Part shown: piece after piece, positions 1 through 47,373 of the stretch
Numbering within the stretch: the stretch's first letter is position 1
Layout of the letters: each line of letters opens with the position of its first letter
Assembly (NCBI GenBank): GCA_900617105.1
Contig: UYFQ01000079.1
Coordinates: forward strand, 1 to 47,373
Direction: 5' to 3'
Source: Hydrurus foetidus
Lineage: Eukaryota
Length of the DNA: 47,373 nt
Program-made: the position numbers and the translations under genes
Notes under the pieces: model-generated
What the model saw: the letters and a program-made list of their open reading frames with translations, nothing else
What the model was told of the DNA's origin: nothing
Databases searched by the model: none

Positions 1-3000
1 AGGGGCCATCAAAACCCCAATGCGAACCAATACCGGGGCCGTGGGTCCGGCGGTAGGGTAAATACAACCCCCCGCAGGGACACAACCCTCCTCCCAACAC
101 TCGGCCGGGACAACACCAGGGTAGAACCTTGCCCATGACTGTGTGGCTGCCACATTCGATGATGATGTCTTTAATCTGACTGATGATCATCTCGAAGTGC
201 AGCCACATGTACCTATTCGTGAAGAATTTTTACATACCCCTTCCACCCTCGCTTCTCACCACCTTAACGTTACGGTTATTGTGCAGGATAAGGACAGGAC
301 AGGCCCAGCTAGCGAGCTGCGCGCCGCGGGAAAGGCCGTAATGGATACGGCCAATTATTCCGATAATTTTATTTCATATGACATGATTGAAAAATTAAAT
401 GCTACTCACTTATGTTATCCTGCTCTTAAAGCCATAACTGTTTGCAGCGGTCTCGATGGCCAATGCTATCTAAATAACGAAATTTGCGATTTAAAAATCC
501 TTTTTCATTCTTACGATGGTGAATGCCATAGCATCAGCCTACCCATGAGGGTCAATCGGAAAACCGACATCGACATTTTATTTAGCCGTGAAACGGTAAA
601 TAAGTATGATTTTGGACGTTAACTCCGTTTGCATTCGGCATTTCTCCTGAGCTAAGTGCTGAGAATAAGAGAAAGAGCGATGCTCGCAGACGCGAATTCG
701 AAAGAAAAGAAGCTTTGGATAAACTCGATCCGTTGTTTCAACACAAATATACGCGTCGTATGATAGCGTTGGGTACCGAACCTGATACAGCCGTAGTCGA
801 GTCTTTAACACCTCACTACGACAAGCTGAAATATCCAGGCGGTAAACCACCCTCTAAAGAGAGAAACACACGGATCTTCCGAGTATCCAAACAAGAAGAG
901 CATATTGCATGGTCAATCTTCTTCGAAGAGCAACGTCTCTTGTGTCCATACAATGTCGACATGTAACGATACTCAGATGGAGATCGAGGGAGTAGCTACC
1001 CAAGATCCCTGTGGTGTTGTAGGTTGTGAGCGACTGAATAGTGTCACTACTATTCTCGCAAAACGTACGGGTGATACACCGCACCTAGGTGGCGACCAGA
1101 TTCCCACCCCTACAAACACTTCTGAGGACTCTGATACCTTAGACTATGTCACTGAGCCTTTATGGCCCAGTGGTGTCGCACTCTCAGTTGACGAGATTGA
1201 CGATGGCAAGATAGATACGTTTGCCCCCTTCTTGGCGGAGAAACCTAGTCAAGATGACTTGCCCAAAGGGCCAGAGGATTTCCTCAAAGAGATTACCTTT
1301 GAAGGAGATGAAAGCTTTCAAAGGAAGCTCCGAGAGCTCTGTTCTGAATATTCAGACATCTTCAGTGATCAATTAGCTGAGAAACCAGCGTCACTTAAAC
1401 CCTTTGAGATTAACATCCCACTTGAGTTGTGGGAAAAAGACGAAAACCGTACGCCGGTACGTCCCCAGTCATCAACAAAAGAGGTTGCTCTCAAAGAAAA
1501 CCTTGACGAGATGCTTGCATCAGGGGTTATAGAGCGATCAGATGCCGCTTATTACAGTCATCCTGTAATAGTAACTAAGTCACCCGGTAAATTTCGAACC
1601 TGCATCGATTACCGGCCACTTAATAGGTGTCTTAAGCCGGCCTCATTCCCGTTACCAAATATCAAACACCTCTTTGAGAGGATCGGTAATAAAAAACCGG
1701 ATATTTTTGGTGTGATGGATTTAACCGCTGGTTACCATCAAGCACCGTTACACCCCGCACACCGCATTTTACGGCATTCATATGCTTTGCGGGGGTATTT
1801 CAGTTTACGAGACTGCCCTTTGGTCCGTGTCGAGCCCCTCTTACTTTCAAGAGCAGATGGTAACGGCGGTCCTCTATGGCCTTATCTATCATTGTTGCGA
1901 GATGTATCTCGACGATTGTATAGTATATGGCAAGGGTGAAGCAGAGTTTCTTACTAACTTGAAAAAAGTTTTTGCAAGATTTAGACTTAAGGGTCTAAGA
2001 CTCAAAGCTAAAAAATGCCGTTTCGGCCTTCCACGTATTGAATACGTTGGCAGAGTCGTTGACAAAGATGGTCTATCCATGTCAAAAGAGAAGATAGAAA
2101 CAGTTTTAAACTTTTCTATACCTAAAAATTTAACCTTACTCAGGTCATTTTTGGGTTTAGCGAACTATTTTCGACAGTTTGTACCAATGCATTCCACTTT
2201 GGTTAAGCCAATGCAGGATATGATTGATCACTCTGCTCCGAGACGTTCTGCTGTAGTTTGGACTCAAAAGAGCACCAACTCATTTGTTGACACAAAGATT
2301 GCTATATCTCGTTGTCCATTAATGTACTTCATTGATGACAATAAGTTAGACATCCGCTTGTATACAGACGCATCCGACTTTGGTATCGGTGGAGTCTTAT
2401 TCCAAGTTGTTGGTGCCATTTGGCAACCAATTGCTTTCATTAGCAAATCGTTGACACCCACACAAATAAGGTGGTCTACGATACAAAAAGAGGCTTATGC
2501 CATCTTCTATTGTTGTACACAACTCGATTATCTAATCAGAGATCGTACGTTCACTATCCATACGGATCACTTGAACATAACATATATGAAACAAAATCCT
2601 ACCTCAATGGTGGCGAGATGGTTCATTGCTATGCAAGAACTAGATTTTACCGTGGTATTCGTACCCGGTACTTCGAATGTTTTGGCAGACGCACTGTCAA
2701 GGCTATGTCCTAATCTGACAGAAATTGCTCTGCCGTTACGAACAGAAGAATTGGAATTACTTCCTACTTCATCATCTTCTTTCACTGTATCAGCTCTGAC
2801 GGTCATAGAACCGGCTTCAGACGATCAGTTAGAATACATTCAAATGTGCCACAATGCAATTGTCGGTCACAACGGCGTAGACCGTACCCTTACTCGGTTG
2901 TTTAGTTTACAACAAGTATGGAAAAACATGAAACAACATGTACGTACGTTCATACAGAACTGTCCGTGTTGTCAAAAGTTGAGTGCAAAAGATCCTAAGA

Positions 3001-27100: not shown

Positions 27101-30100
27101 GCGGTGCGGTGCAGTGCGGTGCGGTGCGGTGCGGTGCAGTGCGAGTGCGGTGCAGTGCGGTGCGGTGCGGTGCAGTGCAGAGTGCAGTGCAGTGCAGTGC
27201 GGTGCGGTGCAGTGCAGTGCAGTGCAGTGCGGTGCGGTGCGGTGCGGTGCAGTGCGGTGCAGTGCGGTGCAGTGCGGTGCGGTGCAGTGCAGTGCAGTGC
27301 GGTGCGGTGCGGTGCGGTGCGGTGCGGTGCAGTGCGGTGCGGTGCGGTGCGGTGCAGTGCAGTGCAGTGCGGTGCGGTGCGGAGTGCGGTGCGGTGCAGT
27401 GCGGAGTGCGGTGCGGTGCGGTGCGGTGCAGTGCGGTGCAGTGCAGTGCAGTGCAGTGCGGTGCAGTGCAGTGCGGTGCAGTGCAGTGCAGTGCAGTGCA
27501 GTGCGGTGCGGTGCGGTGCGGTGCGGTGCGGTGCGGTGCGGTGCGGTGCGGTGCAGTGCGGTGCAGTGCGGTGCGGTGCGGTGCGGTGCGGTGCGGTGCG
27601 GTGCGGTGCGGTGCGGTGCGGTGCGGTGCGGTGCGGTGCGGTGCGGTGCGGTGCAGTGCGGTGCGGTGCGGTGCGGTGCGGTGCGGTGCGGTGCGGTGCG
27701 GTGCGGTGCGGTGCGGTGCGGTGCGGTGCGGTGCGGTGCGGTGCGAGTGCGGTGCAGTGCGGTGCGGTGCGGTGCGGTGCGGTGCGGTGCGGTGCGGTGC
27801 GGTGCGGTGCGGTGCGGTGCGGTGCGGTGCGGTGCGGTGCGGTGCGGTGCGGTGCGGTGCGGTGCGGTGCGGTGCGGTGCGGTGCGGTGCGCAGTGCGGT
27901 GCGGTGCGGTGCAGTGCAGTGCGGTGCGGTGCGGTGCGGTGCAGTGCGGTGCGGTGCGGTGCGAGTGCGGTGCGGTGCGGTGCGGTGCGGTGCAGTGCGG
28001 TGCAGTGCGGTGCGGTGCGGTGCGGTGCGGTGCGGTGCGGTGCGGTGCGGTGCGGTGCGGTGCGGAGTGCGGTGCGGTGCGGTGCGGTGCGAGTGCAGTG
28101 CGGTGCGGTGCGGTGCGCGGTGCGGTGCGGTGCGGTGCGGTGCGGTGCGGTGCGGTGCGGTGCGGTGCGGTGCGTGCGGTGCGGTGCGGTGCAGTGCGGT
28201 GCGGTGCGGTGCGGTGCGAGTGCGGTGCGGTGCGGTGCGGTGCAGTGCGGTGCGGTGCGGTGCGGTGCGGTGCGGTGCGGTGCGGTGCGGTGCGGTGCGG
28301 TGCGGTGCGGTGCGGTGCGGTGCAGTGCGGTGCGGTGCGGTGCGGTGCGGTGCGGTGCGGTGCGGTGCGGTGCGGTGCGGTGCGGTGCGGTGCGGTGCGG
28401 TGCGGTGCGGTGCGGTGCGGTGCGGTGCGGTGCGGTGCGGTGCGGTGCGGTGCAGTGCGGTGCGGTGCGGTGCGGTGCGGTGCGGTGCGGTGCGGTGCGG
28501 TGCGGTGCGTGCAGTGCGGTGCGGTGCGGTGCGGTGCGGTGCGGTGCAGTGCGGTGCGGTGCAGTGCAGTGCGGTGCAGTGCAGTGCGGTGCAGTGCAGT
28601 GCAGTGCGGTGCGGTGCGGTGCGGTGCGGTGCGGTGCAGTGCAGTGCAGTGCAGTGCGGTGCGGTGCGGTGCGGTGCGGTGCGAGTGCGGTGCGGTGCGG
28701 TGCGGTGCGGTGCGGTGCGGTGCAGTGCGGTGCGGTGCGGTGCGGTGCGGTGCGGTGCGGTGCGGTGCGGTGCGGTGCGGTGCGGTGCGGTGCGGTGCGG
28801 TGCGGTGCGGTGCGGTGCGGTGCAGTGCGGTGCGGTGCGCAGTGCGGTGCGGTGCGGTGCAGTGCGGTGCGGTGCAGTGCGGTGCGGTGCGGTGCGGTGC
28901 GGTGCGGTGCGGTGCGGTGCGGTGCGGTGCGGTGCGGTGCGGTGCGGTGCGGTGCGGTGCGGTGCAGTGCGGTGCGGTGCGGTGCGGTGCGGTGCGGTGC
29001 GGTGCGGTGCGGTGCGGTGCGGTGCAGTGCGGTGCGGTGCGGTGCGGTGCGGTGCGGTGCGGTGCGGTGCAGTGCGGTGCGGTGCGGTGCGGTGCGGTGC
29101 GGTGCGGTGCGGTGCGGTGCGGTGCAGTGCGGTGCGGTGCGGTGCGGTGCAGTGCGGTGCGGTGCGGTGCGGTGCGGTGCGGTGCGGTGCGGTGCGGTGC
29201 GGTGCGGTGCGGTGCGGTGCGGTGCGGTGCAGTGCAGTGCGGTGCGGTGCGGTGCGGTGCGGTGCGCGGTGCAGTGCGGTGCGGTGCGGTGCGGTGCGGT
29301 GCGGTGCGGTGCGGTGCGGTGCGGTGCGGTGCAGTGCGTGTGCGGTGCGGTGCAGTGCGGTGCGGTGCGGTGCGGTGCAGTGCGGTGCGCAGTGCAGTGC
29401 GGTGCAGTGCGGTGCAGTGCGGTGCGGTGCGGTGCGGTGCGGTGCGGTGCGGTGCGGTGCGGTGCGGTGCAGTGCGGTGCGGTGCGGTGCGGTGCGGTGC
29501 GGTGCGGTGCGGTGCGGTGCGGTGCGGTGCGGTGCGGTGCGGTGCGGTGCGGTGCGGTGCGGTGCGGTGCGGTGCAGTGCGGTGCAGTGCGGTGCGGTGC
29601 GGTGCGGTGCGGTGCGGTGCGGTGCGGTGCGGTGCGGTGCGGTGCGGTGCGGTGCGGTGCGGTGCAGTGCGGTGCGGTGCGGTGCGGTGCGGTGCGGTGC
29701 GGTGCGGTGCGGTGCGGTGCGGTGCAGTGCGGTGCGGTGCGGTGCAGTGCAGTGCGGTGCGGTGCGGTGCAGTGCGGTGCAGTGCGGTGCGGTGCGGTGC
29801 GGTGCAGTGCGGTGCGGTGCGCAGTGCGGTGCGGTGCAGTGCGGTGCGGTGCGGTGCGGTGCGGTGCGGTGCGGTGCAGTGCGGTGCGGTGCAGTGCGGT
29901 GCGGTGCGGTGCGGTGCGGTGCGGTGCGGTGCAGTGCGGTGCGGTGCGAGTGCAGTGCGGTGCGGTGCGGTGCGGTGCGGTGCAGTGCGGTGCGGTGCGG
30001 TGCGGTGCGGTGCGGTGCGGTGCGGTGCGGTGCGGTGCGGTGCGGTGCGGTGCGGTGCGGTGCGGTGCGGTGCGGTGCGGTGCGGTGCGTGCGGTGCGAG

Positions 30101-31860
30101 TGCGGTGCGGTGCGGTGCGGTGCGGTGCGGTGCGGTGCGGTGCGGTGCAGGTGCGAGTGCGGTGCGGTGCGGTGCGGTGCGGTGCGGTGCGGTGCGGTGC
30201 GGTGCGGTGCAGTGCGGTGCGGTGCGTGCGGTGCAGTGCGGTGCAGTGCGGTGCGGTGCAGTGCAGTGCGGTGCGGTGCGGTGCGGTGCGGTGCGGTGCG
30301 GTGCGGTGCGGTGCAGTGCAGTGCGGTGCGGTGCAGTGCGGTGCGGTGCGGTGCAGTGCGGTGCGGTGCGGTGCGAGTGCGGTGCAGTGCGGTGCGGTGC
30401 GGTGCGGTGCGGTGCGGTGCAGTGCGGTGCGGTGCGGTGCGGTGCGGTGCAGTGCAGGTGCAGTGCGGTGCGGAGTGCGCGGTGCGGTGCGGTGCGGTGC
30501 GGTGCGGTGCGGTGCGGTGCGGTGCGGTGCGGTGCGGTGCGGTGCGGTGCGGTGCGGTGCGGTGCGGTGCGGTGCGGTGCGGTGCGGTGCGGTGCAGTGC
30601 GGTGCAGTGCGGTGCGGTGCGGTGCGGTGCGGTGCGGTGCGGTGCAGTGCGGTGCGGTGCGGTGCGGTGCGGTGCGGTGCGGTGCGGTGCGGTGCGGTGC
30701 GGTGCGGTGCGGTGCGGTGCGGTGCGGTGCGGTGCGGTGCGGTGCGGTGCGGTGCGGTGCGGTGCGGTGCGGTGCGGTGCGGTGCGGTGCGGTGCGGTGC
30801 GGTGCGGTGCAGTGCGGTGCGGTGCAGTGCAGTGCGGTGCGGTGCGGTGCGAGTGCAGTGCGGTGCGGTGTGGTGCGGTGCGGTGCGGTGCGGTGCGGTG
30901 CAGTGCGGTGCGGTGCAGTGCGGTGCGGTGCGGTGCGGTGCGGTGCGGTGCGGTGCAGTGCGGTGCGGTGCGGTGCGGTGCGGTGCAGTGCAGTGCGGTG
31001 CAGTGCGGTGCAGTGCACAGTGCGGTGCGAGTGCGGTGCGCAGTGCGGTGCGGTGCGGTGCAGTGCAGTGCGGTGCGGTGCGGTGCGGTGCAGTGCGGTG
31101 CGGTGCGGTGCAGCGGTGCGGTGCGTGTGCGGTGCGGTGCGGTGCGGTGCGGTGCGGTGCGGTGCGGTGCGGTGCGGTGCGGTGCGGTGCGGTGCGGTGC
31201 GGTGCGGTGCGGTGCGGTGCGGTGCGGTGCGGTGCGGTGCGGTGCGGTGCGGTGCGGTGCAGTGCGGTGCGGTGCGGTGCGGTGCGGTGCGGTGCGGTGC
31301 GGTGCGGTGCGGTGCGGTGCGGTGCGTGCGGTGCGGTGCGGTGCGGTGCGGTGCGGTGCGGTGCGGTGCAGTGCGGTGCAGTGCAGTGCAGTGCGGTGCG
31401 GTGCGGTGCGGTGCGGTGCGGTGCGGTGCGGTGCGGTGCGGTGCAGTGCGGTGCAGTGCGGTGCAGTGCAGTGCGGTGCAGTGCGCGGTGCGGTGCGGTG
31501 CGGTGCGGTGCAGTAGTGCGGTGCGGTGCGGTGCGGTGCGGTGCGGTGCGTAGTGCGGTGCGAGTGCGGTGCGGTGCGGTGCGGTGCGGTGCAGTGCGGT
31601 GCGTGCTGAGTGCGGTGCGGTGCGGTGCTGCAGTGCGGTGCGGTGCGGTGCAGTGCGGTGCAGTGCGAGTGCGGTGCGGTGCTGCAGTGCGGTGCGGTGC
31701 GGTGCGGTGCGGTGCAGTGCGGTGCGGTGCGGTGCGGTGCGATGCTGTGCGGTGCGGTGCGGTGCGGTGCGCAGTGCGGTGCGTGCGGTGCGGTGCGGTG
31801 CAGTGCGGTGCGGTGCGGTGCGTGCTGTGCGATGCTGATGCGGATGCTGATGCTGATGCT
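24131..31860. repeat. 7.7 kb pentamer satellite (GTGCG/GTGCA)n, about 1,500 units
   Basis: Seen directly. Richer in GTGCA at the left end and mostly GTGCG further right; degenerate GTGTA/GTATT patch at about 26200-26255. Confidence 0.98.
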
Positions 31861-34233
31861 GTGCGGTGATGGTGCCGTGCAGAGGCATCTTTTTCTCGAA
31901 GATGCGAGTGAGTGCGGCAGTGCGGTGGGTGCTGAGTGGGCCATGTACTTGTACATGGTTCTCCACCACCTCACGAAACTGAGTCATGCAGCGCATCTCA
32001 ATCTCCCTTTTGTTGTAACAAAAGGCGAGATGGACTTCGAGAAATGCTCAGCTAGTGACTGCCCCAGCTGTGTGTCCGCGCGAAAGTAGCGCAGGACTAA
32101 TTGCGCTACTTGAGGGACCGTCAGTGTTTGGAGCCACACTTTACGTGTCTCTTCCGCATATGGATAATCTTGATCCGTATGGATCTGATCATCGATACAC
32201 CTGACTGCTTTAGTCGAGATGACTTGACCAACATCATAGTTGTTGGTCCACCTCTGGGAGTGTTCGAAAAACTCCCGTGCGGCCTCTTGTCCAATAATGC
32301 CTGACGCATTCACGTTGAGAACGTAAAGTACCGTTTGCAAGGCAATAGCGGAGATGGGTCGAGAACCATCGTCCACAGCACGGCCACCCACTACAAGCGC
32401 TGTAGATGCCGCATTGGGTGTGGCAAACTGTACCGCGGGTACGTTGATCGGTGACGTACGATCGTGTATGTACCGTGGTATCGGTGGTCGTACCGGGGGC
32501 GCTGCATTGGGGTCGGGACCGCCCCCTGCCGTTTGTGCACGGAATGCTGCTGTTTGCTGCTCGTAATCGATTTTGCGATCCGTTGCAGGCAGTACCACGA
32601 TGTCTGGAGGATCCAAGGGGAGTGGGTTAGGAACCCGAATTTCCCGTGGGATCTCCTGGATGACTCGTTGGGGTTGTGGGTTGTAATCCGTGTCACCGGT
32701 GAACGTACGTACGTATGTAGGCCGTTCCGGTGACCCTGGTGGGGAAGCTTGTCGCTTGCGTGATGTGGGACCCTCTTGTGGAGGTGACGCGCGTTTGCGA
32801 GGAACGTCCGCTGTGCGGGTTATTGTCTCCACATTTTCGGGGATGCGCGTATCGCGACTCTCGAGTAGTCGAGAGTTGTCGGTAACGCGTACGGTTGCCC
32901 GTGGAGTCGCACGTTCGTCCTCGTACTGGTTGTCGTTGTACTGACGACCGTCAGTATTACGGTTGCCCCGGTTGAAGGTATCCTGTTGGCGACGATTGTC
33001 TCCTTGAGGATAATCCCTTGGGGGACTGTCATCGTAACCCTGTGGGGGTTCTCGACGACTTCTCCTATTGGGGTTGTTGTCTCCCTGACGGAAACTGTCG
33101 TTGTTGTCGTCGCGAGAATTATCGAAACTGCGAGTGTTAGTCGAATAATTTCCCCTGTTTGGGTTGTCATTACGACGAGAATCCTCGTAATTACGATTAT
33201 CCCTTTGGGGGTTATCGTTGTGACGTTGGAAAGTGTCTCTGCGATTATCCCTGTTAGGGTTGTCGTCTTGTTGGCGATGGTCGTGCTCGCGACGCCCGTC
33301 ATTCTGACGTGGGTTGTCGTCGTTGCGACGATTGTCGCTGTTGCGTCGATCGTCGTATTGACGTCTGTTGTCGTCGTTGAATTGGGTGTCGTAGCCGCGA
33401 CGACCATCGTTGTCGTGACTGTCGTCATTCTGACGGTAATTGTCGTTATAACGACGATTATCGCTCTGACTTTTGTCGTTGCGGCGATCGTCGTTATATT
33501 GACGTCCCTCGTTATCGTAACGAACGTCGTTACGGTGCTCCGTACCGTATGAAGGGCCCGTATTACGGTTGTCCCTGGGAGGGTTGGAGTCATCGTAGGT
33601 ACGACGATTGTCGTTGTGACTTTGATTGTCATCATTAAAACGTCGATAATCGTTGTTGTTCCGATTATCGTCATTGTATTGGCGTTGGTTAGAATCGTGG
33701 CGTTGACGGTTATCGTAACGATTACCGTCACCACCGTCTTCGCTACCACTCTGTTGGTTCTGAGTGGGCGAGTAGTCGCCCGTTGCATCTCCGTCGACGG
33801 GGTTATTCCGACGAGTTGAGTTGTCGTAACTGTCGAGGCCCTGACGACGGAGGTATCGTTGCGGGGGTGAATCTATACGGCGGCGGGGGTTAGTATCGCC
33901 GTCGTCATCATCCCGGTCAGGGTTGCCGTTATGGCGTGTCTGATGACGATTTGCGTCTGACGAACGCAACGTGACATTGTCATGTTGTCGCGTCGTCTGA
34001 ATGTCGTCGTCGTCGTCGTTATGACGATTAGGCGGCGCCTGATTGGAACTGTTGGTAGGTCCCAGTATTGTTACTGGGAATACCGGGCGATCAGTTCCGT
34101 CAGACGCAGCTACTGCTGTCGGCGCTGTTGGTGTCGACTGAGTTATCGTAACTGTCGTCGCTGCCGGAACTACTTGAGTAGTTAATTCGGCGAGCGACGG
34201 CGATATCTCCGAAGAGTCATCGGATAACGGCAT
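31860..34233 (-). mobile_element. Truncated gag of another Gypsy family (element E) with a long N/D/R/Q-rich N-terminal region
   Basis: 749-aa ORF plus a frameshifted continuation (EIEMRCMTQFREVV...TRIFEKKMPLHGTIT) that resembles B2 Gag (NVELAAIARLRDIL...CKIIYKKLPLDNKFT). Runs into the satellite. Confidence 0.65.
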
Positions 34234-34651
34234 TGTTAAATGACTTATTGCTTGACAATTTCAAGTAGCGGAAGTCGCCAAAAAAAATTTGCAAGGGCTT
34301 CGCCTCGTGCCGTTTGGATGAAAATCAAACAGACGATTAGGCGAAGTTAAATAAGTCAAATAAAGTCTGGACGGATGAATGAATCAATCCGTACAGAATG
34401 AGCCGGGATTGGGAGACTTGCTCGACCAACCACGAGAACGGCGTGGAAGACAAAGCTATCCACGGACGTCAGCCAAGCAAAGCTTGAGGCGAGAGATGGG
34501 CAGAAGTTAACTGAGTTAACTCTACACAATAGTTTGGGATTGCTGAGATGAAACTCAAGCAACCACAAGACAGTCAAGTATCGGGAGATTCCGAGTGACT
34601 AAGTTTACGGCGACCAGACTTCGGAGACTTGCTCGCGATAGTAAGAATTGC

Positions 34652-34920
34652 ATCGGTGGTGTACTCTTCCAAATTGTCAACACCGTGTGGAGACCAATTG
34701 CCTTTATAAGCAAATCTCTATCGGCAACACAAATTAATTGGTCGACGATACAAAAAGAAGCTTATGCCATCTTTTTCTGTTGCCAACAACTCGATTATCT
34801 CATTCGAGACCGAAAGTTCACTATTCATACTGACCATATGAATTTGACTTACATGAAACAAAACCCTACCTCAATGGTAGCACGGTAGTTCATTGCAATG
34901 AGTCCATTTCTCCGACCACA
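34652..34920 (+). mobile_element. Relic of an A-family element: RNase H fragment plus an LTR terminus
   Basis: IGGVLFQIV...WSTIQKEAYAIF...NPTSMVAR*FIAM closely matches element A. Ends TCCGACCACA, the reverse complement of the first 10 nt of the A LTR. Confidence 0.85.
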
Positions 34921-37900
34921 GTGGTGCAGAGTTGGGGTTCACCACGTAGGCCCCGAAGGACCCTACGATTGATTACATCCCCAACCTGACATCCGGTGTC
35001 GATTTGTGATAGGGCGGCCATGCCACTATTTTGGTCCGTAGCTGGAGGAGGATTTAGGTGGGGACCGGTCTCGATCGCGGCGATCTTTGTCTTTGTCTTT
35101 GTCTTTGTCTTTGTCTTTGTCTTTGTCTTTGTCTTTGTCTTTGTCTTTGTCTTTGTCTTTGTCCGTTTGGCACGAGTCTTCTTCTTTGTCAATGCGGTCG
35201 CCAAAGCGGTAGCCGGGGATGGGGTCTGAGGAAGATATATGTGTACTTGTAAGTATTCGACAATCTTGTCAGGTATGATTGCCGATAAAAGCATTTGCAT
35301 TTTTGGCAAAATACGAGTTTCGGATTTATTTTCCGTATTCGGAAGATTGGACTCACGTTTTCCTTTGTACGCGCAGTCTTTGATTTCGCGAGTATTTGTC
35401 GATCGTTGTCGCGATTGGACCGGTCGTCGTGGCGATTGTTGGAATTGTTGTGGGCTTTGGCCTTGTTGTTCTTTTTGTTGTTGGTCTTGCGAGGATCTTC
35501 TTTTGCGACGGGAGCCATATCCATTTCGACGTCTTCAGTTGGGTAGACGTATGTTGCAGCGCCCCGATTATTGGTTGTCCTGGTCATTTCGCCGTTGAGG
35601 AGGATGTTTGGCACGAAATGGTTGTGGTCAAATCGTTTGAACTCTGTGGCAGTCGTGGATTGACTCCACGTGCAGCACGTGTTGTTGTAGTGTGGGTTCA
35701 TGAATTGTCGACAATCGTAACGATTGTGTCCGGCGCGACCGCAGGTGTGGCAAGTGTCAACTGTTTTGCTCAAGCCTGGGAAGACGTCGGAGTCTCATTT
35801 TGGTATTGTGCGACAGGAGGCGGAGAGCTGTGTAATGTTGCTGGGCGACAATGTGTCGGGCGTGATTTTGGTCTCGAAGTCGTAACGAAGACCACCCATG
35901 TTGGACGCGTTGATAACTGTTTGCCGAGCTTCACTGAGGCAGAGATTCATTCGGCACAACATGTTCGGGATGGAATCCTTTTTGTTGTTTCTTGTTTTGT
36001 CCTTTGTAATGTTCATGAAATTCTCGGTGAACTTATTATCTCAGTGAGCTCTGTGTAGATGATCTCACAGATCTTGTGTTGGCATTCGGCAGGTATATTG
36101 TCGTAACTTCTGTAGTATCCGAAGAGGATATCTCGGAGTCGCGCAATTGCCGCCAACTCTACGTTTGGGTTTTGCCATTTGATCTTCATTTGCCAGTTTT
36201 TTAGGGAAAGGTCCAGGTCATAGGTAGACTCTGTGGCACGATCACTGAAGAAGAGTTTCTTGAGGTCGGTTGCTATGTCGCGTATGGATAGGAGTTTGTC
36301 GTCGATGATGGGCCAAGTTTAACACATTTTGATTGTGTATCCGAGAGTCTTTCTATTTTGTAGTAGACTGTCTCGGATCACATGAACAGCTTCGTCTTCA
36401 ATCAGGTCTTTCCAAGGTGCATTAAACTGAGGGCGGTGAGCCTGGGTATAGAACTTTCGGGCTGTGCCGTCCATGTCCTTCAGTAATGTCTCACGTGTTA
36501 CATAAAACACTTCCTTCATGTTGATGAGGGAGGTTGTGAGTGCTTGGGGTGTCCTTTGTTGTTCGAAGATTGTGTCTGCCTCTTCGGTTTTGCGCTTGCG
36601 GTTCGAAGTGGCGGCCGCTTTCGTGGAAGCTGGTGCTGTTTTCTTTGCAGCTACTACCATTGTTTTCGACGTTTTGGATCTGGTAGCGCGTGTGGGTTTG
36701 TCTTCAGTTTGGACGGCAGTGAGGGTTTTCGCCTCCCTTGTTTTGGCAAGGGGTTTGATAGGCATAGACTTTTTCTTTTTCGGATTTGGAGATGGGGAAT
36801 CTTCCGCTTCCGACTCGCTTTGATCTTCCTCGTCTGATTGAGACTTGGTGTCGTCGTTGTCGTTGTCCCCCTCTTCTTCCTCGTCATTGGTTTGTTCTTC
36901 TTCCGCCTCTTCAGAGGCGTTGTCAGTAACTGAGACGTTATCATCGTCGGATAGGGTTTCCTTCGGAGATGCTTTGGTGCCAGTTTTGTCGTCGTCCTCT
37001 TCCGTTTGAGGAGGATTGATATCCTCTTCTTCTGCGGTTTAGAGTCGGAGTGGAGAGCCATCCTCGTCTGACTGAGGGATGAGACTCTGTAAGTCATTTG
37101 TCTCCTTCATCCAGGCTGACAAGTCTTTTAGTTCTTGATCTTCGAGATCAGATCGGTGGTCGGCCTGTTCCTGCAGCACTTCAAGTCGCGAACGATTACG
37201 TTCGCGTTCTTGTTGTTGCTGCAGGTAGCGTACCTCATTTGCTGCCAATTCGTCGGATACTCGAGTATGGGTGTTCGAGGCTTTGATAGCCGATTTCCCC
37301 ATCTCTTTCATGGAGTTGGCTATATTGTCTTCTCGAGCGAGTCGCTCGAGTTTAGCCTTCTCTTTTTCCGATAGGAAGAGGATATTTTGTGGTTTGGGGC
37401 GTTTAGAAGAGGAGCTAGCTTCGCTAAAGCTCTCCCTCTTGGTTTGTGGGGCCTTGACCATCTTGAAATCTTGGCCTGAGAATTATGACTGGAACTCTAC
37501 ATCTTGGACAGCGACGGGACTCGGACGCGGTGATTCAGGGAAAAGACGAGTAGGTTTTTCAGGTATGAGGAATCGTAGGTTAAGGATGTGGTAGGAGGAG
37601 TCAGGGGGATTGGAATGGTTTCGTGCGATTTCGGGAGGAAATCGCGACGAAATTGGGTAGTGGTCGGCGGCTTCGTAAGCTACGAAGCTGGGCTTCCCGA
37701 GCGAGACGCTCGAGTTTAGCCTTCTCTTTTTCCGATAGGAAGAGGATATTTTGTGGTTTGGAGCGTTTGGAAGACGAGCTAGCTTCGCTAGAGCTCTTTT
37801 CCTTGGGTTTTTGGGCCTTAACCATCTTGAAAACTTGGCGTGGGAAATCTCACTGGAACTCTGCGTCTTGGACAGCGACAGAACGCGGACGCGGTGATGT

Positions 37901-38595
37901 AGGGAAAAGAGGAGTAGGTTGGTAAGTTGTGAAGACTGGTAGGTAAAGGGTGTGGTAGTAGAAGTCAGAAGGATTGGATTGGTTTGGTGCGATTTCGGGA
38001 GAAAATCGCAACAAAATTCGGACGTGGGCAGCGGCTTCGTAAGGAACGAAGCTGGGCGTGGGCGCGTTGGATTTCGTTCGTGAACGAGTTTGGAAGGTGT
38101 TACTTGCTTGCAAGTTCCTTTCCTTCGTAAGCCTTCGAGTAGAAGAGCTCCACGATATTTGGGAATAAATCGCCAATGTTTGAGGTCGTTAACGACTACG
38201 ATTCAGAGGCTGTCAAGTTGACGAGACCTTTGTAGTAGTGTTTATGGTGGTTTTCACTCTTAAAAAGCTACACAACTTGTTTGCTCGGACTGTTTTACGG
38301 TCGTTGCGAGGTTTTTTGTTGGGTTCTTTGGGCAACTTGGATCTCAGAGATCGCTAGTTGGTTCCAAATAGATCTATTGTGGCCTTGCTAGGATCTTGGC
38401 ACTGGGAGCAGGACGGCTGGGAGCGGGGGCAAGAGAAAGGGGGTTGGGGGAGCTATTGCTATGGATAACAATGTGGTTAGCTTACAGGTAAACACAACAG
38501 ATATCATGGCAATGAATCGTGTGGATCGGATCGTCCTCGATCTGATCCGAACATACGCCTGTACCCGTACAGCCCGTACGGGTGTGCGGGCCACA
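34921..38595 (-). mobile_element. Degenerate Gypsy element B1 (5' LTR, UTR, gag with CCHC knuckle, start of protease)
   Basis: Gag closely similar to B2 but with nonsense codons (37039, 36319, 35795); CHTCGRAGHNRYDC; IDTGCQVG protease motif; cut at 34921. Confidence 0.9.
38378..38595 (-). repeat. 5' LTR of B1 (218 bp)
   Basis: TGTGGCC...GGCCACA perfect 7-bp inverted termini; homologous to the LTRs at 39703 and 44729. Confidence 0.92.
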
Positions 38596-39702: not shown

Positions 39703-39918
39703 TGTGGTCTCACTAGGACTCTGGGCTGGAACGGAGGGCTGCTAGAACGCGGGCGAAGGAAAGGGGGTGATGGGGCTGGTGCTATGGATAGCAAAGTGGT
39801 TAGCTTACAGATAAACACAGCAGGTATCATGGCAATGAATCGTGTGGATCGGATCGTCCTCGATCCGATCCGAACGTACGCCTGTACCCGTACCGCCCGT
39901 ACGGGTGTACGGGTCTCA
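39703..39918 (-). repeat. 3' LTR of element C (216 bp); polypurine tract at 39919-39934
   Basis: Minus strand reads AGATAGAGAGGGGCAC|TGAGACC...GACCACA; homologous to the B1 and B2 LTRs. Confidence 0.92.
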
Positions 39919-40112
39919 GTGCCCCTCTCTATCTAAAGGGGTGTACTAACTATCAAAATTCATCATCAAAATACTAACTATGAATAGATTCTAACTATTG
40001 AAAAACTATTTCAGACTGAAACCGGAAGTTTCGTACTGAATAAACCTCCATAAAACCCGTTGGGATTCAATGTAGGAGGAATCTTTATGATTTAGTGAAT
40101 CAAAATGTTGTG

Positions 40113-40268
40113 TTTTGGTTTTGGTTTTGGTTTTGGTTTTGGTTTTGGTTTTGGTTTTGGTTTTGGTTTTGGTTTTGGTTTTGGTTTTGGTTTTGGTTTT
40201 GGTTTTGGTTTTGGTTTTGGTTTTGTTTTTGTTTTTGTTTTTTTGTTTTGGTTTTGGTTTTGGTCTTT

Positions 40269-40324
<56 letters not shown>
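40113..40324. repeat. (GGTTTT)n followed by (TA)n in the 3' UTR of element C
   Basis: Seen directly, about 20 nt past the pol stop codon. Confidence 0.95.
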
Positions 40325-40344: not shown

Positions 40345-43300
40345 TTATCGGTAGTTCGCGATGAATTCGCGTGGTATTAAATGTTTAAGGTTCTTTTTTA
40401 TCAAAAATTCATGTACTTTTTGCGACTTGCGCATATGTGTCCACGGTTCCCAGGTGTTGTGTTCCTGAGTATAGTTGAGCCATTTCACATGAAATGTGAG
40501 TGTTTTGTAAGCTCGAATGTTACCTTTCATTTCTAAAATATCTTCGATGAAGAATTCTAGGTAGTCCCTACGAGCTATGTCGGTTGGGTCTACATGAGTT
40601 GGGTCGAATTGGAAAGGTTTTAATTGTGTCATGTGGTACACTTTTTCTTTATGTGTTATTAGATCGAGTAAAGTATACTCTGCGAAGTTGTGACTGACAA
40701 CTCGCATCGGACCACGCCACAGTGTGTGCATGCGTGTTTCCGGTGTTGTTCGCTGTTGCACAAGTACATATGTATCGACTCCAAATTGTGTGATGTTGGG
40801 TGATTGTTGTGCATTGTGGATGTCGTCTGATTCTTTGAGTAAACGTGCAGTGATTTGGATAAGTTCATCCTGCAACGTCAACATTGTATCTGTTGATTTC
40901 GATAGTGAATGGGATTTCAAATCGATTTCGTCTCGCGGGAGTAGGATATTGGCATCGAGGTCGATAGCGTTGCCATAGATGAGTTGTGCAGGTGACACTT
41001 TCATACGGTCGTTTACAGTTGAATTTAGTATTCTTTGTACGAATGGTAGTATTTCCGCGTAATTTTCCGTTGTTGCGCGTTCGTACGCGTATGCGGTGAT
41101 GTGACGATTTATTTCTTTGTTGATACGTTCGACGATAGCGTTTTCTTCTGAACAGTATGGTAATATTTTGTTGTGGGTTGTACCAACAATTTTCACGAAC
41201 TCATCGATAATGTGAGCGACGAAGTGTGGGCCATTATCTGATCGAAGTATAGATGGTGTGCCGTATCGGCCCACGTGTTCTATGAGTGCTTTGCACGCTG
41301 CTTTAGCTGTTGCATCAGGTGTAGCATAGAGTTCGACAAATCTCGAAAATGTGTCGATCATAACAAGGATGTATCCTTTATCTGGGAATGGTCCGATGAA
41401 GTCAATATTAAGACATTCCATTGGTTTGTATGTTGATGTCGTGTACCTATATGCATTGATGGGATATTTCATGGCCGACATCTTTTGGCAACAAGGACAA
41501 TTTTTTATGAATGTTTTTACTGCGTCACGCATTCCCAACCATATGTTATTTGATTTTTTTAAATTACGCAGAGTGCGTTGAACACCACCGTGTCCGACTG
41601 TAGTGTTATGACACTTTGCAATTATGTTATATTGCTCTGTCGTCAGCGGTTTGTGTGTCAGAATTGCAGCTATTATTCCTGTTTTAGGTAGCATTCTGTT
41701 TTTACATAGGCGAGACATTGCATCGGCAATTTCGTTTTGTTTCCCAGGGATATATCCTATCGTATATTCTAATTCTTGCAGGGCCATACGCCATCTGCTG
41801 ACCATTTTGTTCTTGTCTTTTTCAAGGAACGTAAGATTTTTGTGGTCTGTTAGAATAGTGAATTTACGATCTCGTAGCAGTGCGTCGAGATAGGTACAGC
41901 AATAATATAGCGCGAAGGCTTCTTTTTGTATTACTGACCATTTCAGTTGAGTCTTGGTAAGAGACTTGCTTACAAGAGCGACAAGTTGTTTTTCCCCGTC
42001 GACTTCTTGATACAAATAGCCGCCTATACCGTAATCCGAAGCATCGGTCATTAGGGTTATGGGCGCTGTATCGTGTATAAAATATAATAAAGGACTCTGT
42101 GCAATTAGATCTTTGATCTTTTGGAAAGAGTTCGCAGCGTCATCTGTCCAGATAAGCAATGATTGCTTTTTCGCTGCGTGATCGATCATTTTATGCAGTG
42201 GTGCAACCACGTTAGAGTGATTTGGTACATGATCCCGAAAATAGTTGGTGAGACCAAGAAACGATCTTAGTTCGGTCGTCTTTCTTGGCATAGGAAAGTC
42301 GGTCACACCTCTTATTTTTTTAGAGCTCATAGTTATACCATCTTTAGATATTTGTTTACCAACATATTCAACTAATTTTACATTTAGTTTAAGCTTTGCA
42401 GCTTTTAGTGATATGTTTTTTTCTTCGAGACGTTGAAACAATATTTCTAAATCGCAGAACTCCTCAAATCCATTACCATAAACGATTATATCGTCGAGGT
42501 ATACTTCACAAATGTGATATATTAGTCCCAGAAGGACTATTGTGGCCATCATTTCTTGGAAATATGAGGGAGCTCTTTTGGGTCCGAATGGTAGTCGGGT
42601 AAAGTGGTAAATACCCATAAAGGTGATGAACGCGGTGTACACGCGTGTACTCAGAGTTAGTGGGGCTTGGTGATAACCTGCAGTGAGGTCGATTACACCG
42701 AATGTGTCTGCCTTTTGTGAACCTAATCTCGCTAACATTTGTCTAATATTAGGAATTGGCCAGCTTGCTGACTCTGTTGCATCGTTGAGGTGACGGTAGT
42801 CAATACAGAATCGGTATGAACCGTCTGGCTTAGACGCAAGTGTAACTTGTGAGTAGTATGATGCCTCTGATTTGACTATTATACCCTGTTCTAGCATAGT
42901 ATCAACTTGTTTACGGATTTCAATTTGTTTCCGTAATGACGTTTGTCGGGGTGCTACACGATTCCTGAATACTTTCCATTCTGGATCCCGTACGGGTAGT
43001 CCAAACGGTGGAATACGTGCAGGTTCCGGCCCGAGTTTGTTGTTGAAAAGCTTAATGTGTTTGACACAGATTGCTCTTATTTTTACTATTTGGTCAGGGG
43101 TACCATCGATGTGTATTAAATCGATGAGGTACATTTTATCCTCTGTTGGATTGTCTTGGAAAGGAGCGAAGGTATCCTTCGACTTGTAGTCAATCTCTTC
43201 GGGTCCGAAGGGTTGAACCTCCGGGAGTTCTTCACGCTCCCGGAGTAGAGCAGCAACTAGACCACGCGTTTGAGCTGGTGCCTTGGATGAGGGAGTAGGA

Positions 43301-44728
43301 GTAGCTAATTCCGGACTCCTGTCGGTTGTTAAACCTAAATCACTGTGTCGGGGAGGTGACAACAAAACTGCTGCCTCGACCGTAGAGTGCACAGTGAACT
43401 CATCTAAAACAAGTTGAGCCGCTGCCGCAGCTGAACCTGTGGGACACCCGCATGATGCAGTGCATGTCTTGCTTGTACAAGCACCTCGAGCCACCAGGTC
43501 GTCTTGCCATCGACTGTCTGCGTCTGAGGGTTTTATCCCCTCCTGGCTAGTTATAACCAGAGGTATGTTGTGTGTGTTTTTATTTTGTTGCGTTGTGTCA
43601 GTGTAGGTGACGACATGTTCAGGTTCTGCATATAGCAGCTGTACTGGAATAGTTGTAAGAACGTCTGTTCTCGACTTTTGTAATTGTTTTGACGTCGGAT
43701 GTGGAAGAAGTTTTGTTCCGATTTGATCTACATTTTGGAAGAATTCTGGAAGAATTTTTACCAGGTTGAGATCTTTGATTGTTTTTAATCCGAGGATTAA
43801 ATCGACTTTGGAGTCTTCCGCAATTCGGACAGGAAGAGCGAAAGTGTATTTGAGAAAATCTTTTTTAAATGATACAACAATATCAAGCACATGTGTAGAT
43901 TCAATACATTGATTATTTAGACCGGAACACATCCATAAGGGAGTGTCCGTTGTGCGCAAGTGGGGTTCGCCTTGCAGGCCCCGAAGGACTCTACGGTTGA
44001 CTACGTCCCCAACTTGGCATCCGGTGTCGAGTTGTGCGAGAGCGGCCAAGTCGTTACTTGGGCTCGTATTTGTTGGAGGAGGAGGATTTCCCGGAGGTGT
44101 TGTTGTCGTCCCGGCGGTTGTCTTTGTCTTTCGCCGAGTCGCGCGACTCTTCCTTGCGGGAGTTGTCACGGTCGCGATCGGTAGCGCGGTGGTTGGGACG
44201 GTAACCGGGGATCGGATCTGTGGTAGAGATATTGTTACTTGTAAGTAATCGTCTATGTTTTCAGGTAATATCGCTGATAGTAGTTGTGTCATGTTTGGAA
44301 TTTTCTGACTGTCGTCAGAATGCAATGCATGCGCGTCAGTCAATGACAACTTACTTTTGCCTTTGTATCCGAACTCTTCGCCGGTTTTGTTGTTGACGTT
44401 TCCGCGGCTACGGTTTGCGTCACGATCGGTGTTGCGGTCGTTGGCGTTGTTGTTGTTGCGTTCGTTATCGCGATCGTTGTTGGTACGATCCGACTTCGCA
44501 TTGTTGTTGTTGTTGTTGTTGTTGTTTTTGTTATTGTTGTGTTTGTTTTTGTTGTTGTTGTTTTGGGGTTGTTTCTCTGGACCCTTGTCGGTGGTGTCTC
44601 CTTCCGTGGGATAGATGTATGTGGACGCTCCATGATTGATGGTAGTTTTCGTCATTACCCCGTTGAGGTAGACGTTTGGCACGAAGTGAGGGTGGCCGAT
44701 TCGGCGGAAATCGGCTGACTCCGGTGAC
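40345..44728 (-). CDS. Element C Gag C-terminus and Pol: PR-RT-RNaseH-IN-chromodomain
   Basis: LDTGCQVG, CIDYRHLN, RLPFG, YLDD, TDASDYGIGG, IDFIGP/RSDNG/IVER, LWRGPM, FHVKWLNY..NTWEPW. Confidence 0.95.
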
Positions 44729-44937
44729 TGTGACCACGTGGGGCTGTACGGGTACAGGCGTACGTTCGGACCGGATCGAGGACGATCCGATCCATCCGAT
44801 TCATTGCCATGATACCTGCTGTGTTTACCTGTAAGCTAACCACATTGTTTCCATAGCAATAGCTCTCCCAGCTTCTTTTCCCTCGCTCCCGCTCCCAGCT
44901 GACCCGCTCCCAGTGCCCAGATCCTGGCAAGGCCACA
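44729..44937 (+). repeat. 5' LTR of B2 (209 bp)
   Basis: TGTGACC...GGCCACA; homologous to the B1 and C LTRs. Confidence 0.92.
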
Positions 44938-45490
44938 ATACCGGTATTTGGAACCAGCTAGTGATCTCTCAGATCCAAGTTGACCAAACGTCCCAACAAA
45001 AAAATCCCGCAACGACCGTAAAACAGTCTGAGCAACAAGTTGAGTAACTCTTCAGGAGTGAAAACCACCCAAAACGATATAACAAAGGTCTCGTCAACGC
45101 GACAGCCTCTGAATCGTAGTCGTTCGCGACCTCAAATATTGGCGATTTATTCCCAAAATATCGTGTAGCTCTTCTACTCGAAGGCTTACGAAGGAAAGGA
45201 ACTTGCAAGCAAGTAACACCTCCCAAACTCGTTCACGAACGAAATCCAACGCGCCCACGCCCAGCTTCGTTCCTTACGAAGCCGCTGCCCACGTCCGAAT
45301 TTTGTTGCGATTTTCTCCCGAAATCGCACCAAACCAATCCAATCCTTCTGACTTCTACTACCACACCCTTTACCTACCAGTCTTCACAACTTACCAACCT
45401 ACTCCTCTTTTCCCTACATCACCGCGTCCGCGTTCCGTCGCTGTCCAAGACGCAGAGTTCCAGTGAGATTTCCCACGCCAAGTTTTCAAG

Positions 45491-47173
45491 ATGGTTAAGG
45501 CCCAAAAACCCAAGGAAAAGAGCTCTAGCGAAGCTAGCTCGTCTTCCAAACGCTCCAAACCACAAAATATCCTCTTCCTATCGGAAAAAGAGAAGGCTGA
45601 ACTCGAGCGTCTCGCTCGGGAAGACAATATAGCCAACTCCATGAAGACGCTGGGCAAATCGGCTATCAAAGCCTCGAGCACCCATACTCGAGTATCCGAT
45701 GAATTGGCGGCAAACGAAGCACGCTTTCTGCAGCTACAACAAGAACGTGAACGCAATCGCGTGCGACTTGAAGTGCTGCAGGAACAGGCTGACAACAGAT
45801 CTGATCTCGAAGATCAAGAACTGAAAGACTTGTCAGCCTGGATGCAAGAGACAAATGACTTACACAGTCTAAACCCTCAGTCAGATGAGGATGGCTCTCC
45901 AATCCGACCCCAAACCGAAGAAGAAGAGGATATCAATCCTTCTCAAACGGAAGAGGGCGACGACACAATCGGTACCAAAATATCTCCGAAGGAAATTCTC
46001 TCCGACGATGATAACGTCTCGGTGTCTGACAACGTCTCGGAAGAGGCGGAAGACGAACAAACCAACGACGAGGACGAAGAGGAAGACAACAACCCCGACG
46101 ATACCAAGTCCAAATCGGACGAGGAAGATCAAAGTGAGTCGGAGGCGTCAACCCCACCGTCACCAAAACCGAAGAAGAAAGAGGCGATGCCAATCAAACC
46201 CCTTGCCAAAACAAGGGAGGCGAAACAACTCTCTGCCGTCCAATCTGAAGACAAACCCACGCGTGCCACCAGATCCAAAACGTCCAAAGCAACGGTAGCT
46301 GCTGCAAAGAAAGCAGCGACAGCTTCCACGAAAGCGGCTGCCACTTCAAACCGCAAACGCAAAACCGAAGAGACTGACACAGTCTTCGAACAACAACGAA
46401 CACCCCAAGCACTCACAACCTCCCTCATCAACATGAAGGAAGTGTTCTATGTAACACGTGAGACATTACTGAAGGACATGGACGGCACAGCCCGAAAGTT
46501 CTATACACAGGCGCACCGCCCTCAGTTTAATGCACCTTGGAAGGATCTCATCGAAGACGAAGCTGTCCATGTGATCCGAGACAGTCTCCTTCAAAATCGA
46601 AAGACTCTCGGATACACAATCAAAATGTGTCAAACCTGGCCCATCATCGACGACAAACTCCTGTCCATTCGCGACATGGCCACCGATCTCAAGAAACTCT
46701 TCTTCAGTGATCGCGCCACAGAGTCTACCTATGACCTGGACCTTGCCCTAAAAAACTGGCAAATGAAGATCAAATGGCAAAACCCAAACGTAGAGTTGGC
46801 GGCGATTGCACGACTCCGAGACATCCTCTTCGGATACTACGGCAGCTACGACAATATCCCTGCAGACCGCCAACATGAGATCTGTAAGATCATCTACAAA
46901 AAGCTCCCTCTTGATAATAAGTTCACTGAAAACTTCATGAACATTACAAAGGACAAAACAAGAAACAACAAAAAGGATTCCATCCCGAACATGTTGTGCC
47001 GAATGAATCTCTGCCTCAGTGAAGCTCGGCAAACAGTTATCAACGCGTCCAACATGGGTGGCCTTCGTTACGACTTCGAGACCAAAATCACCCCCGACAA
47101 CTTGTCGTCCAGCAGCACAACGCAGCTCTCCGCCTCCTACCGCACAATACCCAAACGCGAATCCGACGCCTAC
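45491..47173 (+). CDS. B2 Gag, interrupted before the zinc knuckle
   Basis: Open frame after the 5' LTR/UTR; colinear with B1 gag until 47173. Confidence 0.85.
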
Positions 47174-47373
47174 TGTGGTCTTGGGCGGGGCCTAGGACGT
47201 TGGAGCTAAAAGTGGTGGTCGGTTGATGCAAGCGGTGGGCAAGGGAAGAAAGGATAGGTGGAGTAAACTTTTGTTAGTATTTTACAGTTGAGTATCTACA
47301 AGTGATGTGTACGCTAAAGTGCATTCACATCATATGTGGAACTAAGACCTAAAAGTGGAATCTGGGCGTAATA
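47174..47373. mobile_element. LTR of a further element (D) inserted in B2 gag, probably in reverse orientation
   Basis: Homology to B1 gag stops abruptly at TGTGGTC, the terminus used by other LTRs here; purine-rich like the reversed LTRs. Confidence 0.7.

Follow-up and report, generated by a model that had tools for sequence, protein, structure and literature searches.

A predicted BARE1-like splice switch at the protease start in a clade of single-ORF chromodomain Gypsy elements

A clade of Ty3/Gypsy retrotransposons with a single open reading frame and a chromodomain, represented by element C in a 47,373-nt stretch of Hydrurus foetidus DNA (contig UYFQ01000079.1, assembly GCA_900617105.1; this whole stretch is referred to as the window), very probably uses a splice switch at the start of its protease which resembles that of the barley element BARE1. 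We assign this reading a probability of roughly 0.85, with the splicing itself inferred from the DNA. RNA in which the intron is retained would be read through to yield Gag-Pol, and removal of the intron would change the reading frame and make Gag terminate in a short basic or charged tail, so that optional splicing at the protease start would set the Gag:Pol ratio in elements that have only one frame. According to the protein model, the spliced RNA would lose the protease twice over, by deletion and by the stop codon. The occurrence of splicing, its partial nature and its control over the ratio of the two products are inferred from sequence data. We ascribe the predicted mechanism to the family, of which copy C is a rearranged member.

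The original prediction had placed a 137-nt intron of length 3n+2 between a GTAAGT donor and a CAG acceptor in copy C, and all of its coordinates check (Table 1). Joining the flanks yields the charged tail and the TAA stop that had been foreseen (44056-44054) shortly before the protease DTG codons; 25 nt separate the end of the TAA from the catalytic Asp codon, and the distance from start to start is 28 nt. The donor is in phase 1, the cut separating the first base of a codon from the other two, and is the only match to GT[AG]AGT in the 4.5-kb ORF of copy C. Within the intron the Pol frame is open, and each of the other frames contains four stops. The intron has 39% GC and 25% T, compared with 50% and 8% upstream and 60% and 12% downstream. 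A CTTAC motif 28 nt upstream of the acceptor end is a weak candidate for the branch point, with conserved residues coded at the same place. A host WD40 gene of the window appears to contain GT-AG introns of 178-181 nt. A database search with host gene sequence returned environmental proteins at 99% identity and relatives from EukProt/MMETSP at 55-58%. The openness of the -1 frame alone was discarded as evidence, as such runs are common in the ORF of copy C, where 9 of 69 open runs in this frame reach 40 or more codons. When copy C was recoded synonymously, the -1 frame was open in 9% of the recodings, and open with a stop at the same place in 2%.

Table 1. Positions of the described features in the window
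Feature	Position	Strand	Remarks
Likely 3' LTR of element C, TG...CA	39703..39918	-	88% identity to copy B 5' LTR over 162 nt
Polypurine-tract-like run	39922..39934	-	Upstream of 3' LTR
Pol part of element C	40345..44740	-	Gag end, protease, RT, RNase H, integrase and chromodomain in a single frame (Pfam on ORF)
Protease catalytic DTG codons	44020..44028	-	
Dual-coded segment, copy C	44054..44217	-	Predicted 53-residue charged Gag tail plus TAA if spliced; protease loop in Pol frame
Predicted retained intron, copy C	44218..44354	-	137 nt (3n+2)
Acceptor CAG	44218..44220	-	AG ends at 44218; Gln codon closing the first protease strand
Branch-point-like CTTAC	44241..44245	-	28 nt upstream of acceptor end; matching place in copy B
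Donor GTAAGT	44349..44354	-	Phase 1; starts at 44354
Inverted 5' half of element C	44741..47176	+	LTR remnant, leader and Gag; 88-99% identity to copy B 38575-35782
Copy B, decayed and truncated relative	34890..38595	-	LTR, Gag, zinc knuckle and protease start in normal order
Homologous tail, copy B	35026..35225	-	65 residues, stop TAG
Homologous intron GTGAGT...CAG, copy B	35226..35356	-	131 nt (3n+2)
Element A, decayed and more distant	284..291	+	Homologous CAG, then immediate -1-frame stop

Element C belongs to the Ty3/Gypsy group by several lines of evidence. Protease, RT, RNase H and integrase follow each other in the order typical of this group (Pfam; the protease by fold), and Pfam places no integrase upstream of RT, as would be the order in Ty1/Copia. 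Among solved structures, the RT is closest to the Ty3 Gag-Pol (E 5e-79; next match outside Ty3, E 3e-30). A chromodomain (PF00385) scores above the cutoff at the integrase C-terminus of C, of A and of all seven Pol-bearing relatives scanned, and this combination of Gypsy domain order and C-terminal chromodomain is common to element C and to Tf1/Tf2, Tj1, Tcn1, MAGGY and the plant chromoviruses. A polypurine-tract-like run is present, and the TG...CA repeat is shared with copy B and with the inverted half of element C; downstream of the pol stop and ahead of the polypurine run, the 3' untranslated part contains (GTTTTG)n and (TA)n tracts (40112-40324). For the Gag region, all ESM Atlas matches were below 0.9 (a Retrotrans_gag cluster at 0.89, plus two clusters bearing no name), and we regard them as a lead only.

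The open Gag-Pol frame of the original prediction stands in its 3' part and falls in its 5' part. The unspliced ORF (44835-40345, minus strand; 1496 open codons) is open through the intron to the chromodomain, with RT, RNase H, integrase and chromodomain recognized by Pfam, but a complete Gag is missing upstream of it, as the 5' half of element C is inverted. The inverted Gag runs from an ATG at 45491 to just short of the zinc knuckle, which is absent from copy C and present in copy B. Thus, copy C does not extend from Gag start to Pol in one orientation, and normal Gag could not be produced from this copy itself. The inversion as assembled may be a real rearrangement or an assembly error. One breakpoint of the inverted half adjoins a short palindrome at the LTR start, and 471 nt of this half are 99% identical to copy B, for which gene conversion or an assembly error is possible. 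The relatives P0006, L001, L005, L006 and L010 run from Gag to chromodomain in one frame, and a single frame is therefore the normal state of the family.

The original prediction had proposed an alignment of family copies as a check, and this check came out in its favor: the GT, the CAG, the 3n+2 length and the stop in the alternate frame are conserved across copies which are about 50-80% identical in RT-RNase H. A Pol alignment fetched 20 metagenome loci, of which 6 lacking the protease region were dropped (L014, L016-L020); of the 14 that include it, L015 was treated apart as an outgroup, and the remaining 13 were scored together with the three window copies (n=16). An alignment of the Gag-protease region returned 141 pattern matches in metagenome contigs and 40 in viral contigs, none of which was confirmed. 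As the copies are kin, the counts in the set of 16 are not independent. The Gln codon at the acceptor is CAG in all 16 copies, with the qualification that this Gln was chosen after the sequences had been viewed and that in L003-L006 a second nearby Gln (CAA) also satisfied the automatic rule. When the best donor was picked blind and in any phase, it gave a 3n+2 intron (phase 1) in 15 of 16 copies; the single miss is the decayed element A, whose frame is broken around the expected donor. A stop in the -1 frame upstream of the catalytic Asp is found in 16/16. Intron lengths range from 86 to 212 nt with the blind donors and from 86 to 161 nt at the homologous donors, where the tails in the shifted frame have 4-65 residues. 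In a 26-row RT-RNase H tree, built without named reference elements, each of the two main branches carries the signals.

Comparison with other Gln codons puts these counts into proportion. Among 388 other Pol Gln codons from 9 lineages, 112 are CAG and 189 have a best donor in phase 1 (49%, not one third), and both features coincide in 14.4%, compared with 9/9 lineages at the predicted site. The pyrimidine share upstream of the acceptor is 0.74 versus 0.53 in the controls. None of the 10 invariant Gln columns is CAG throughout, and a single codon was kept in only 4 of 223 invariant columns, so that silent sites are saturated. The residue at the donor varies between the four that an NGT codon can specify (Ser, Arg, Gly, Cys), while the GT itself is constant; in near relatives known as proteins, Ser or Arg precedes Lys or Glu at this place in 22/22 matches. 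The splice signals are conserved far beyond what the protein needs. One could still suppose that GT and CAG merely follow from conserved residues and that the tail is accidental, given that the Gln is conserved as a residue and that long open -1 runs abound in the ORF of copy C, but we find this hardly credible in view of the saturated silent sites, of a GT that stays while its residue varies, and of changes that follow the shifted frame (see below).

The donors differ in strength, being weak in L002 (GTGATG) and in L003-L005 (GTACTC/G), and in the latter three the blind donor (212 nt) is not the homologous one (107 nt). In L008 and L009, a further strong donor in phase 1 (GTAAGA) precedes the main one by 18 nt; its use would produce an intron of 140 nt and shorten Gag slightly. 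In the outgroup L015 (39% identity in RT-RNase H) the comparable Gln codons read CAA, and Gag-protease lies in a different frame from the rest of Pol. A strong donor is present in L015 as well (1681-1966), with only 3n+1 acceptor candidates, and if it were used, Gag would likewise terminate in a charged tail; this is one case and was not counted.

No Pol-frame stop occurs in the intron in any of 10 lineages, which bears on the question whether Pol translation might begin within it. The intron could always be spliced from the full-length RNA, with Pol made from an internal start, either a promoter or an AUG, inside the intron. Copies C and B indeed have an in-frame ATG at the same place in their introns (+62), and overall such an ATG is found in 4 of 10 lineages; the other six lack it, and the Met is missing from the near relatives P0005-P0008. 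Moreover, the 5' part of the intron contains no Gag-Pol-frame stop in 10/10 lineages, compared with 42 stops in the -1 frame, a pattern that makes an internal start unlikely.

The residues coded by the intron had been interpreted as conserved pre-protease sequence. The AlphaFold model and structural alignments instead make them part of the protease, as its own first strands. The modelled protease region (mean pLDDT 78) was recognized as a retropepsin fold by fold search only, as the protease profile had no match among PDB sequences; the top structural alignment has a Z score of 11.8 and an rmsd of 3.1 over 103 aligned residues. Alignments to the proteases of Ddi1, RSV, EIAV and HIV open at model residues 15-18, already within the part coded by the intron, and pair them with the very beginning of those enzymes. 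The same part includes a strand modelled with confidence (model residues 23-28, pLDDT about 95), and the first strands would be coded by the 3' half of the copy C intron. In the model this strand is followed by a loop matching the tail exon (pLDDT about 44-60) and then by the catalytic core; read in the Pol frame, the dual-coded segment is a low-confidence loop rich in T/P/K/R. With the intron coding for the N-terminal strands of the protease, the tail exon comes to lie inside a protease loop, and the Gag tail is thus predicted to be overprinted there.

The dual coding claimed by the original prediction is borne out by a comparison of copies C and B. In the dual-coded anchors, which are the ungapped parts of the tail (24 and 15 nt) and were picked by eye, position 2 of the Pol codons has 9 changes and position 3 has 2, while in the Pol-only anchors 5 fall on position 2 and 22 on position 3 (Fisher p=4.8e-4). 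Position 2 of Pol is the wobble position of the spliced frame, so that the changes between C and B track spliced-frame wobble. The stop is conserved as such, switching from TAA in C to TAG in B, and in 21/22 near relatives known as proteins the residue pair where the tail ends permits a stop, compared with 28% of 748 loop pairs. Two database proteins, P0014 and P0028, slip into the alternate frame and have endings of the form Y-x-P-K like C and B. The substitution pattern demonstrates selection on the amino acids of the predicted shifted frame.

The tail might also be reached without splicing by -1 ribosomal frameshifting near the acceptor, since it sits in the -1 frame, which in C is open from 14 codons upstream of the acceptor. 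However, C and B have no slippery heptamer inside the intron, those of other copies are scattered (5 of 10 lineages) with no shared place, and frameshifting would not account for the conservation of donor, CAG and pyrimidine tract, so that we judge it extremely improbable. Among 169 related proteins no spliced form was found, which is a weak negative because the hits with a listed source come from ENA/JGI assemblies that behave as genomic DNA. The same count agrees with the view that the sites are real but serve another role, such as silencing through stalled spliceosomes, RNA export or packaging, with little Gag-only protein being made. According to the accessible part of the source, splicing of a cryptic Tf2 intron does feed silencing in fission yeast (PMC7175516). 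Such a role alone would explain neither the amino acid selection in the shifted frame nor the conserved stop, and we consider it very unlikely compared with a switch that produces Gag.

Several other observations were made in the window. PIPGY follows directly after the acceptor in C and B, and PIPG is found upstream of the expected donor in the lineage of element A (window 1-60, plus strand; Gag-Pol frame in P0010); PIPG is possibly a C-terminal Gag motif that was moved across the intron. The Gag start of copy B contains a 364-nt tandem duplication (37329-38057), and an RNase H fragment with 77% identity to element A (34652-34900) abuts the truncated end of copy B in opposite orientation. A GTGCG array of about 1538 copies (7.7 kb, 24133-31880) gives rise to very long spurious ORFs. 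The 758-codon ORF at 31984-34260 (minus strand), with Asp/Asn/Arg repeats, has no Pfam match; by eye, its end resembles an N-terminal Gag region of this group.

The proposal of a splicing switch that makes Gag is supported by the conservation described above, with the restriction that copy C is rearranged and with a different closest precedent: the original prediction had pointed to Drosophila copia and Arabidopsis Evade, while the nearest known system is BARE1. In this barley Ty1/Copia element, a 104-nt GT-AG intron at the protease start is alternatively spliced, as demonstrated by cDNA (PMC3735527, accessible text). The likeness comprises a single ORF and a short GT-AG intron of 3n+2 length that is U-rich relative to its flanks, with splicing of BARE1 leading to a Gag-only RNA (PMC3735527, same text); in the family studied here, too, the frame is open through the intron, GT-AG is conserved, the length is frame-shifting, the intron is U-rich and an early stop follows. 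In contrast to BARE1, the elements described here are Ty3/Gypsy (protease-RT-RNase H-integrase-chromodomain), and their splicing is predicted from the DNA. Furthermore, the stop of BARE1 lies three residues past Gag in the published description accessible to us (PMC3735527), whereas here the predicted tail has 4-65 residues and is dual-coded with the protease loop.

For EVADE, other Arabidopsis Ty1/Copia shGAG elements and Drosophila copia, the accessible text of PMC5580714 describes splicing centred on the protease, a stop due to a frameshift and a Gag-only mRNA, all as predicted here. Their introns are long, in contrast to ours, and take out the whole protease or most of pol, and early polyadenylation is a feature of theirs (same text). 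Conserved splicing features were not found in Arabidopsis Ty3/Gypsy elements according to this text (PMC5580714). Use of host splicing by Gypsy elements is known from Ogre, CRR, Cer1 CERV and env (PMC3735527 and PMC12786077, as far as accessible). Ogre and CRR resemble the present family in being Gypsy elements with spliced transcripts; Ogre splices between ORFs and CRR removes the RT, and the accessible descriptions present neither as a frame-shifting intron that ends Gag within an open Gag-Pol frame. Chromodomains are reported to be a reliable mark of chromoviruses in plants (PMC6317226, in part), and the strategies listed for chromoviruses in the accessible part of a survey are -1 frameshifting, an in-frame stop or a single ORF (10.1101/2022.12.06.519325). 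Unlike what is proposed here, that part names no splice switch (10.1101/2022.12.06.519325). A literature search covering mainly open-access papers, most of them by abstract, revealed no Gypsy element with an intron of the BARE1 type, and passages of PMC13547354, PMC5014426, PMC9940879 and PMC2864245 contained no Gypsy case either. Within this literature, Gag made by splicing is reported for Copia only; the family described here would work like BARE1 but is not Copia.

A wider reading, to which we give slightly less than even odds, is that an old, clade-wide switch explains the excess of Gag in many Gypsy elements of microbial eukaryotes that have one frame and a chromodomain, that it arose independently of that of Copia, that the first strands of the protease are the intron and the Gag tail is overprinted in an expandable protease loop, and that it may extend to fungal elements. 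To explain how Ty3/Gypsy elements make Gag in excess of Pol, the accessible literature gives frameshifting, read-through and degradation. The family would provide exact sites to test throughout an entire clade, would exemplify convergence of two LTR superfamilies, and would contain an exon overlapping inside a protease loop. It also offers a signature for which Gypsy collections can be scanned: a phase-1 GT, a CAG at the end of the first protease strand, and a -1 stop before the catalytic Asp. If this reading holds, including its reach into fungi, splicing would be a fourth general strategy by which Ty3/Gypsy elements set their Gag:Pol ratio.
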